IMG/VR virus record: IMGVR_UViG_2531839374_000010
Location: 1-9,683 of that record
Reading direction: 5' to 3' (one strand)
From: a virus
Taxonomy: Duplodnaviria > Heunggongvirae > Uroviricota > Caudoviricetes
Length of the DNA stretch: 9,683 nucleotides
Of the stretch, positions 2,849 to 4,419 are shown piece after piece; position 1 is the first letter of the stretch; each line of letters starts with the position of its first letter. The translations under genes were made by a program, and so were the position numbers. The notes beneath the pieces were generated by a model. That model was not told the DNA's origin. It ran no database searches and was given only the letters and a program-made list of their open reading frames with translations.

Positions 2849-3047
2849 TATTTCACCTCTTGCTGTGATATTGTTGAAAAATGAATGCCAGCTCGTTGTT
2901 GCCAGACGATCCAACCGAGAGTCATATCCCATGCCATGTATTCGTTATCGCCGTTTTTTGCTCTCCGACTATCTACTAAGCCACCGAAATGTTTTTCCAT
3001 AAATAATTCATAGGATTCGCGTTCATCTGGCTCTACTTCCAGAGATA
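2848..3047 (-). pseudogene. C-terminal fragment (66 codons) of a ~102-aa prophage early gene (YfdT-like) disrupted by IS600
   Basis: The frame is continuous with the N-terminal fragment at 4312..4419 once the IS and one copy of the ATA duplication are removed. The present 82-aa ORF (2848..3096) takes its first 16 codons from inside the IS600 left end and is therefore chimeric. Confidence 0.7.
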
Positions 3048-3111
3048 TGAGGTAGCCTGAGTTTAACGGACACTCCTTCCTGAAATAGAATGGCATCAGA
3101 AGGAGCTAATA

Positions 3112-3399
3112 ATGAGCAGAAAAAACCAACGTTACTCTAAAGAGTTCAAAGCCGAAGCTGTCAGAACGGTTCTTGAAAATCAACTTTCGATCAGTGAAGG
3201 CGCTTCCCGATTATCCCTTCCTGAAGGCACTTTAGGACAATGGGTTACCGCCGCCAGAAAAGGGCTCGGTACTCCTGGTTCCCGCACGGTGGCTGAACTG
3301 GAATCTGAAATTCTGCAACTGCGTAAGGCGTTAAATGAAGCTCGCCTTGAGCGAGATATATTAAAAAAGCAACAGCGTATTTTGCACAGGAGTCGCTGA
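3112..3399 (+). CDS. IS600-like transposase OrfA (HTH), with an altered C-terminus in this copy
   Basis: ORF translation MSRKNQRYSKEFKAEAVRTVLENQLSISEG... is the IS3-family OrfA type. The A6G motif lies at 3363-3369. The zero frame ends ...ILKKQQRILHRSR, whereas the -1 frame gives ...KKATAYFAQESLKNTR-stop. Confidence 0.8.
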   Translation: MSRKNQRYSKEFKAEAVRTVLENQLSISEGASRLSLPEGTLGQWVTAARKGLGTPGSRTVAELESEILQLRKALNEARLERDILKKQQRILHRSR

Positions 3400-3448
3400 A
3401 AAATACGCGTTAATCGAACAATGGCGACAACAATTTCCCATTGAAGCG

Positions 3449-4267
3449 ATGTGTCAGGTATTTGGTGTATCCAGGAGCGGTTATTACAACTGGGTACAGC
3501 ATGAACCCTCAGACAGAAAACAAAGTGATGAGCGGCTAAAACTGGAGATTAAGGTGGCACATATCCGCACTCGCGAAACATATGGAACCCGGCGGCTCCA
3601 GACGGAGCTGGCAGAGAATGGCATCATCGTTGGTCGTGACCGACTGGCACATCTTCGTAAGGAGCTAAGGCTACGCTGTAAGCAGAAACGCAAGTTCAGA
3701 GCGACTACGAACCCGAACCACAATCTGCCAGTTGCGCCAAATCTGCTGAACCAGACGTTCGCTCCTACAGCACCAAATCAGGTCTGGGTGGCGGACCTGA
3801 CGTATGTTGCCACACAGGAGGGATGGTTGTACCTCGCTGGCATCAAAGATGTTTATACGTGCGAAATTGTCGGCTACGCCATGGGAGAGCGCATGACAAA
3901 AGAGCTGACAGGTAAAGCCCTGTTTATGGCGCTCAGGAGCCAGCGCCCACCTGCCGGGCTAATCCACCACTCTGATCGAGGTTCACAGTACTGCGCATAC
4001 GATTACCGGGTCATACAGGAGCAGTCTGGTCTGAAAACATCAATGTCGCGTAAAGGTCACTGTTACGACAACGCTCCGATGGAAAGCTTCTGGGGAACGC
4101 TGAAAAATGAGAGCCTGAGCCACTATCGTTTTAATAACCGGGATGAAGCCATCTCAGTAATACGGGAATACATTGAGATTTTCTACAATCGTCAGCGTCG
4201 TCACTCTCGTCTGGGGAATATCTCCCCGGCAGCCTTCAGGGAAAAATATCATCAGATGGCTGCTTAA
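3449..4267 (+). CDS. IS600-like transposase OrfB (DDE integrase-like catalytic domain)
   Basis: 272-aa ORF with an rve-type DDE region (...HHSDRGSQYCAYDY...). Its frame is open from 3365 but is +1, not the canonical -1, relative to orfA. Confidence 0.8.
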   Translation: MCQVFGVSRSGYYNWVQHEPSDRKQSDERLKLEIKVAHIRTRETYGTRRLQTELAENGIIVGRDRLAHLRKELRLRCKQKRKFRATTNPNHNLPVAPNLLNQTFAPTAPNQVWVADLTYVATQEGWLYLAGIKDVYTCEIVGYAMGERMTKELTGKALFMALRSQRPPAGLIHHSDRGSQYCAYDYRVIQEQSGLKTSMSRKGHCYDNAPMESFWGTLKNESLSHYRFNNRDEAISVIREYIEIFYNRQRRHSRLGNISPAAFREKYHQMAA

Positions 4268-4310
4268 AAAAAGAACAAATGGTAGTGTCCGCTATTGCCA
4301 GTACACCTCA

Positions 4311-4419
4311 ATAGGAGTGCGATTTCATAAGCACGGCGCTCAATATCGTCTCGCACGTCAAGGCTGCTGATACGCTCTTTAATTTCTTTAATCAGTTCTT
4401 TGTCGGTAAAAGTGGTCAT
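4311..4419 (-). pseudogene. N-terminal fragment (36 codons, MTTFTDKELIKEIKERISSLDVRDDIERRAYEIALL) of the IS600-disrupted gene
   Basis: ATG at 4419..4417 overlaps the stop of the upstream gene (TAATG). The frame runs into the IS600 right end and is continuous with 3045..2848 across the duplication. Confidence 0.65.

Follow-up and report, generated by a model that had tools for sequence, protein, structure and literature searches.

An IS600 element has almost certainly transposed into codons 36/37 of a yfdT ortholog carried by a prophage remnant of the SfV/CPS-53 kind, at thrW of an S. boydii-type chromosome. The DNA in question is a 9,683-nucleotide stretch of a virus record (hereafter the window; IMGVR_UViG_2531839374_000010, positions 1 to 9,683), in which the gene and the element run in opposite directions. 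The ATA/IS/ATA structure that is now present was generated by a staggered 3-bp cut at an ATA trinucleotide and its subsequent repair. In kind the event is ordinary and not new: an IS has entered a prophage gene that its host, an IS-rich Shigella, can do without, and public genomes already contain the insertion. What follows is the evidence for the insertion, for the identity of the interrupted gene and for the state of the element itself, together with other explanations of the same arrangement.

The IS600 element and its target site

The element (1,263 bp) occupies positions 3048-4310, with its transposase genes on the plus strand and thus opposite to the split gene, and has an ATA on either side, at 3045-3047 on the left and at 4311-4313 on the right. 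These coordinates had been assigned to an IS600-like element in a first-pass annotation made from the sequence alone, and they are borne out both by the letters themselves and by alignment. When the region is aligned pairwise with an IS600 copy from an S. boydii plasmid, identity is bounded exactly by 3048 and 4310, and the plasmid copy has a 3-bp duplication of its own, CCA/CCA. Over its full length (1263/1264 bp) the element is 99.8% identical to copies in the plasmid collection that RefSeq annotates as 'IS3-like element IS600 family transposase', the copies compared being those on S. boydii, S. dysenteriae and E. coli plasmids. It begins TGAGGTAGCC and finishes ACACCTCA, with TGAGG as its first bases and CCTCA as its last, giving the ends TG...CA. 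The termini are imperfect inverted repeats, with TGAGGT at both and a common CGGACACT block; these are visible only by direct comparison, and a search for inverted repeats from exact seeds returned nothing at the IS ends.

Two transposase reading frames lie on the plus strand within the element. The orfA variant (3112-3399, 95 aa) matches HTH_Tnp_1 in Pfam (E = 1e-20), and a one-nucleotide deletion in an A-run, described below, has made its 11 C-terminal residues aberrant. The second, orfB (3449-4267, 272 aa), matches HTH_21, rve (E = 2e-25), rve_2 and rve_3, and hence carries a DDE integrase core. Near-identity to annotated copies, the form of the ends and the HTH and rve domains together identify the element as IS600 with the 3-bp duplication that is usual for its family. 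IS600 belongs to the IS3 family and was first described in Shigella. The window copy resembles annotated IS600 in its full-length sequence, its TG...CA ends, its imperfect inverted repeats, its 3-bp duplication and its pairing of orfA (HTH) with orfB (rve/DDE), and it differs from the canonical element in being 1263 rather than 1264 bp long and in one further substitution, at window position 3652 (OrfB His versus Arg). Two 3-bp flanks would match by chance alone once in 64 cases. The decisive evidence for insertion is an empty site with a single ATA.

The uninterrupted allele

Removing the IS and one copy of ATA joins 4419-4314 to 3047-2848 on the minus strand and restores a 306-nt ORF of 101 codons and a stop. 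An ancestral ORF of 102 aa had been proposed from the same operation; the minus-strand ORF is indeed recovered, and its product has 101 residues, the figure of 102 having included the stop. Because the IS and the duplication together measure 1266 nt, a multiple of 3, versions with no ATA or with both copies are likewise open, and continuity of frame is not an independent test.

The first-pass annotation had suggested looking for the IS-deleted junction in related genomes, and the uninterrupted allele is readily found there. In E. coli ECONIH4, an intact 101-aa hypothetical protein (WP_000206736.1) is encoded by a gene that differs from our reconstruction at 2/306 nt, one change being synonymous and the other H55R, with the same junction and a single ATA; the empty site of phage SfV also has a single ATA. 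A 30-mer spanning the rebuilt junction is exact in ECONIH4, in SfV and at six other loci. With an 80-nt query centred on this junction, 19 complete E. coli records were recovered at 99% identity or more (12 of these were among the matches listed, and all 12 are exact), and 1649 of the 5426 complete E. coli genomes gave a match at coverage of at least 80%. The rebuilt junction thus exists in relatives, and the two flanks belong to one gene rather than to unrelated ones. No observation speaks against the insertion as such.

Identity of the split gene

The reconstructed protein is identical to YfdT of E. coli K-12 (b2363, from the cryptic prophage CPS-53) at 92 of 101 residues (91%, E = 1e-70, over 101/101 residues) and to SfV orf28 at 95%, a value shared by its counterparts in SfII and SfIV. 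Among PHROGs it matches phrog_660 (E = 1e-28), and only families of unknown function were hit in that collection; neither Pfam, a PDB sequence search nor PADLOC gave a match. The gene lies between a DUF551 gene (yfdS) and an excisionase gene, in the order yfdR-yfdS-yfdT-xis-int. Judged by this identity and gene order, the split gene is a true yfdT ortholog of the SfV orf28 family, and the earlier description of it as encoding a protein of YfdT-like size was an understatement. Stx and other lambdoid phages have larger proteins, annotated Ea22, EaA or DUF551, that contain counterparts of residues 30-90 at 67-69% identity. The C-terminal region of YfdT therefore acts as a module that is shuffled between proteins.

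A single study (Noguchi and Katayama 2016, PMC4776307) supplied all the functional data that were found on this gene. Multicopy yfdQ and yfdR, in combination with either yfdS or yfdT, inhibit the initiation of chromosomal replication, and this redundancy with yfdS is the only genetic evidence on YfdT. In the same study DnaA was bound only by YfdR, and deletion of yfdQRST from K-12 gave no phenotype, so it is possible that the loss of yfdT has no effect.

Products of the interrupted gene

The 5′ fragment of the yfdT ortholog (4314-4419, minus strand) comprises codons 1-35 plus a single base, the first, of codon 36. Joined to the right ATA, this fragment continues into the right inverted repeat (IRR) as a listed 51-aa ORF (4264-4419, minus strand), made up of 36 YfdT residues and 15 encoded by the IS. 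Its start codon overlaps the stop codon of the yfdS-like gene upstream (TAATG), and it has kept its Shine-Dalgarno sequence (GGAG); given both features, the 51-aa product would be translated whenever the operon is transcribed. The 3′ fragment (2848-3044, minus strand) runs from the final two bases of codon 37 through codons 38-101 to the stop, which overlaps the ATG of xis. It makes up the 3′ end of an 82-aa ORF (2848-3096, minus strand), present as first described, with an ATG (3096-3094) in the left inverted repeat (IRL); 17 codons lying in IRL and the left ATA precede 65 YfdT residues (37-101). The window therefore has no intact reading frame of the YfdT family, the frame being split into these chimeric ORFs of 51 and 82 aa, and we infer that yfdT is here an inactivated pseudogene.

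State of the IS600 copy

The slippery A-run of the element (3363-3368, plus strand) has six adenines in the window copy, whereas alignment shows seven in the canonical 1264-bp IS600. As a result of this deletion, orfB is at +1 with respect to orfA, in contrast to −1 in the canonical arrangement. With A7, a −1 slip yields a 385-aa OrfAB. With A6, direct translation in the zero frame gives the 95-aa OrfA with its aberrant tail, a −1 slip recreates only the canonical 100-aa OrfA and no OrfAB, and a 384-aa OrfAB fusion is reached only by a +1 shift. The window copy thus departs from the expected organization, in which orfB lies −1 to orfA and OrfAB is made by programmed −1 frameshifting. Since orfB has been moved to +1, the copy, although IS600 by descent, is probably defective and non-autonomous: the OrfAB transposase would be out of reach by the usual −1 frameshift, and any movement would need transposase supplied in trans.

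The same A6 run is present in S. boydii ATCC 8700, in ATCC 9210 and in one draft assembly, and another draft has A7. It could in principle be a homopolymer sequencing error made repeatedly, though four of the five assemblies examined have A6. A few complete E. coli genomes also hold A6 copies of IS600.

Distribution of the insertion

At least 24 contigs among NCBI assemblies encode the exact 82-aa chimera. Two of these are the complete genomes CP026731.1 and CP011511.1, which belong to S. boydii ATCC 8700 and ATCC 9210 (PMC9430107, PMC6456863). Both IS-flank junctions (30-mers CTACTTCCAGAGATATGAGGTAGCCTGAGTT and CAGTACACCTCAATAGGAGTGCGATTTCATAAGC in the window) are the same as in the window in these two strains, and the left junction is the same in two draft assemblies. 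The IS-flank junction occurs in none of the 5426 complete E. coli genomes, and there was no match among GTDB species representatives. Identical junctions, together with the A6 variant in several S. boydii assemblies, indicate that the insertion is a single event inherited within an S. boydii lineage. The two complete genomes differ from the window in that their int is intact (387 aa) and in that their downstream IS differs in orfB.

A decaying prophage

At the left end of the window is the 3′ portion of proA (1-1254, plus strand), followed by tRNA-Thr(CGT), or thrW (1369-1444), which was the only feature found in an Rfam scan. Adjoining the tRNA is a tyrosine integrase gene (1459-2621, minus strand) in which the loss of one nucleotide from an A7 run (2236-2241) has left two ORFs. 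The excisionase gene xis (2498-2848, minus strand; HTH_17) is directly downstream of the split gene and retains its own Shine-Dalgarno sequence (GAGG); its 116-aa form starts MEPYSL, and the longest ORF extends to 2932. Immediately upstream of the split gene in the operon is the yfdS-like gene (4419-4781, minus strand; DUF551, 120 aa), preceded by a yfdR-like gene for an HD-domain 5′-deoxynucleotidase (4772-5308, minus strand; 178 aa). Between the latter and an intact-looking gene for an S24-peptidase, cI-type repressor (6837-7511) is an AT-rich stretch (GC about 0.32). It corresponds to a gene for a 198-aa hypothetical protein of ECONIH4, in which the window has CAA changed to TAA at 6189 (Q47stop). 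A CII/CP76-like gene (7834-8403, plus strand) follows, and a second IS3-family element, IS911, cuts the right side of the prophage and runs to the window end.

The deletion in int is the sole difference between the integrase gene of the window and those of its S. boydii relatives. A truncated Int product is listed in 162 blocks of a large collection, and we considered whether the A6 frameshift might be a widespread and possibly programmed feature. This idea was rejected: among complete E. coli genomes, a query with A6 matched 1 record at 99% identity or more and a query with A7 matched 1078, and the deletion is thus either a rare mutation or a homopolymer error. The locus as a whole is a decaying prophage: its int is split, one of the adjacent genes has a nonsense mutation, and IS911 has inserted.

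The insertion may also have consequences for the genes downstream of it. An antisense, largely untranslated IS of 1.26 kb, amounting to about 1.17 kb of untranslated RNA, would now part yfdR-yfdS-yfdT from xis-int, and early-left transcripts would be likely to suffer polarity before they reach these two genes. Polarity on xis and int is therefore plausible. The early-left promoter is probably repressed anyway, because the cI-type repressor gene looks intact.

Alternative explanations

An arrangement of this kind could also be produced by misassembly, if copies of a repeated IS were collapsed or one was wrongly put inside a prophage gene. Shigella has many copies of IS600, at up to 43 places per genome, and the two 1-nt homopolymer deletions in the window might reflect sequencing quality. 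However, the duplication is a clean one of 3 bp, and both junctions recur in two independently finished S. boydii genomes, with the left junction also in two drafts, which makes an artefact extremely improbable. It had also been suggested that the 82-aa ORF could be expressed by transcription reading outward from the element. Such a functional new gene, driven by an outward-reading IS600 promoter, would fit with an ORF that is open, has been annotated as a gene in assemblies at NCBI and retains the whole C-terminal YfdT module, which in Stx-phage proteins annotated Ea22/EaA is linked to other sequences and so may fold alone. The signals that it would need are not apparent. A promoter scan of 2800-4500 returned no minus-strand site, and the only promoter-like site in IRL (3063-3091, plus strand) points inward and is presumably that of the transposase. 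The 23 nt preceding the chimeric ATG (CTGCTCATTATTAGCTCCTTCTG), read directly, contain no Shine-Dalgarno sequence and are complementary to the ribosome-binding site of orfA. In the IS3 family, moreover, the outward −35 lies in IRR and not in IRL, and so here would read away from the 82-aa ORF; a literature search on an outward promoter of IS600 found no report. The proposed expression of the chimera thus failed to find support, and we regard a functional new gene as very unlikely. Equally doubtful are two further proposals, one in which the A6 copy acts as a regulator-only IS600 and another in which the chimera is translated from early-left transcripts that read through the element. In related IS3-family elements, OrfA inhibits transposition. 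Were the first proposal true, the heptamer A_AAA_AAG would give wild-type OrfA by −1 frameshifting and never transposase, and the A6 copy would damp IS600 activity genome-wide; were the second true, a free-standing C-terminal YfdT module would be supplied and translational coupling into xis would be restored.

Alternatively, it is possible that the insertion was favored by selection rather than left by neutral decay, either because it severs xis-int from the early-left promoter and so immobilizes the prophage, or because it removes a YfdT activity that harms the host. The antisense IS is indeed placed between the early-left operon and xis-int, and 5 terminator-like hairpins are found on the minus strand against 1.4 expected from shuffled sequence, although these are consensus hits only. 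Inhibition of replication initiation by multicopy yfdQR with yfdS or yfdT (PMC4776307) would provide a source of harm, and in other lineages an independent IS has hit or adjoins yfdT, namely IS1 in CP030787.2 and an IS1634-like element in ECONIH4. Nevertheless, the prophage is already a short remnant that lacks yfdQ and is truncated by IS911, deletion of yfdQRST has no phenotype in K-12 (PMC4776307), and in an IS-rich Shigella neutral evolution alone is expected to place IS copies in prophage genes that are dispensable. Selection thus appears unlikely, and transposition of IS600 into a gene of a decaying prophage is the reading that we prefer. The practical outcome of this reading is for annotation: the ORFs at 2848-3096 and 4264-4419 should be recorded as the two parts of a single yfdT pseudogene into which IS600 has inserted, and not as two hypothetical proteins. 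The insertion also cleanly marks the lineage of one group of S. boydii strains, and the locus is a compact example of how a Shigella prophage decays by IS insertion and point mutation. Beyond annotation its importance is small, and it illustrates genome decay rather than a new mechanism.

Comparison with known prophages

The closest parallels to the interrupted operon are in CPS-53 of E. coli K-12 and in the serotype-converting phages of S. flexneri. In CPS-53, yfdR (HD 5′-deoxynucleotidase, 178 aa), yfdS (DUF551, 120 aa) and yfdT (101 aa) are followed by torI, the excisionase-type factor of that prophage, and the gene sizes, the order and the one-base stop/start overlaps are the same in the window. 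The two differ in that the window prophage is without yfdQ and yfdP and has the AT-rich gene in their place. SfV has the corresponding order orf30-orf29-orf28-xis-int, and in comparison with both K-12 yfdT and SfV orf28 the window gene is distinguished by its interruption at codons 36/37. The likeness to SfV, SfII and SfIV, which are found at thrW, extends to the position of the block, int-xis-orf28-orf29-orf30 lying beside tRNA-Thr(CGT) and downstream of proA. In contrast to these phages, the window holds a remnant only, which has no gtr genes, a frameshifted int and a right side cut by IS911.

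Suggested operon coupling and possible IS600 polarity

The yfdR-like gene, the yfdS-like gene, yfdT and xis are joined on the minus strand by overlapping stop and start codons, through a 10-nt overlap at 4772-4781 followed by TAATG at 4417-4421 and again at 2846-2850. Such an arrangement points to genes of the early-left operon being translationally coupled, and it is this chain that IS600 breaks. A consensus scan returned five terminator-like hairpins, which are consensus matches only, all on the minus strand within window 2817-3923, compared with 1.4 expected from shuffled sequences. 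Three of the five lie within IS600 in antisense orientation (3600-3583, 3355-3341 and 3923-3908). The minus-strand hairpins may add to any polarity on xis and int.

The same small region has been struck by independent IS insertions in other lineages. At 6695-7575 of the CP030787.2 locus, yfdT is cut to 48 aa by IS1, and at 4125-5735 of the E. coli ECONIH4 locus an IS1634-like ISSpu7 element separates yfdT from a yfdS-like ORF that is itself shortened.

Homopolymer changes in IS600 and the integrase gene

The slippery run of this IS600 copy (3363-3368) is A6 instead of A7, which shifts orfB into frame +1. Slippage by -1 at A_AAA_AAG would recreate the normal 100-aa OrfA without yielding the OrfAB transposase. 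S. boydii ATCC 8700 and ATCC 9210 also have the A6 run of IS600, as do a few E. coli genomes among the complete ones.

The minus-strand int gene lacks one nucleotide of an A7 run (2236-2241) and is thereby split into ORFs of 152 and 262 aa, and int is intact, at 387 aa, in the S. boydii relatives that carry the same IS600 insertion. Among complete E. coli genomes, at an identity of at least 99%, the A6 query matched a single record versus 1078 for the A7 query. The truncated product is nevertheless found in 162 blocks of a large collection, and the A6 form of int is either a mutation that is rare but recurrent or an error in sequencing the homopolymer.

A second IS3-family element

Another IS3-family element, which we take to be IS911, begins about 40 bp beyond the CII/CP76-like gene and runs past the window end (approximately 8446-9683), encoding OrfA with an HTH_Tnp_1 domain and OrfB with an rve domain. 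Its left junction is common to S. boydii ATCC 8700 and ATCC 9210. A segment of its orfB (9000-9029) has no exact match in either genome, and at that position in both the genes of another IS are called, with products of 108 and 295 aa.

Gene content compared with relatives

The yfdR-like gene and the repressor flank an AT-rich stretch (5731-6327, minus strand; GC approximately 0.32). Its counterpart in E. coli ECONIH4 is a hypothetical gene for a 198-aa product (WP_001764244.1) whose N-terminus is hydrophobic. The window copy of this gene is interrupted by a CAA to TAA change (Q47stop; stop at 6187-6189). Searches of Pfam and PADLOC gave no match to it in either, and its position beside the repressor suggests a putative accessory or exclusion-type gene.

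We compared the gene content of window 5309-6836 with that of related loci L009-L014, phage SfV and the K-12 prophage CPS-53. Whereas yfdP and yfdQ (DUF2303) lie upstream of yfdR in SfV, CPS-53 and most relatives, both are absent here, and the AT-rich gene occupies their place, as it does in E. coli ECONIH4. In the published multicopy yfdQRS/T effect, yfdQ is a required partner (PMC4776307), and that partner is therefore absent from this prophage.
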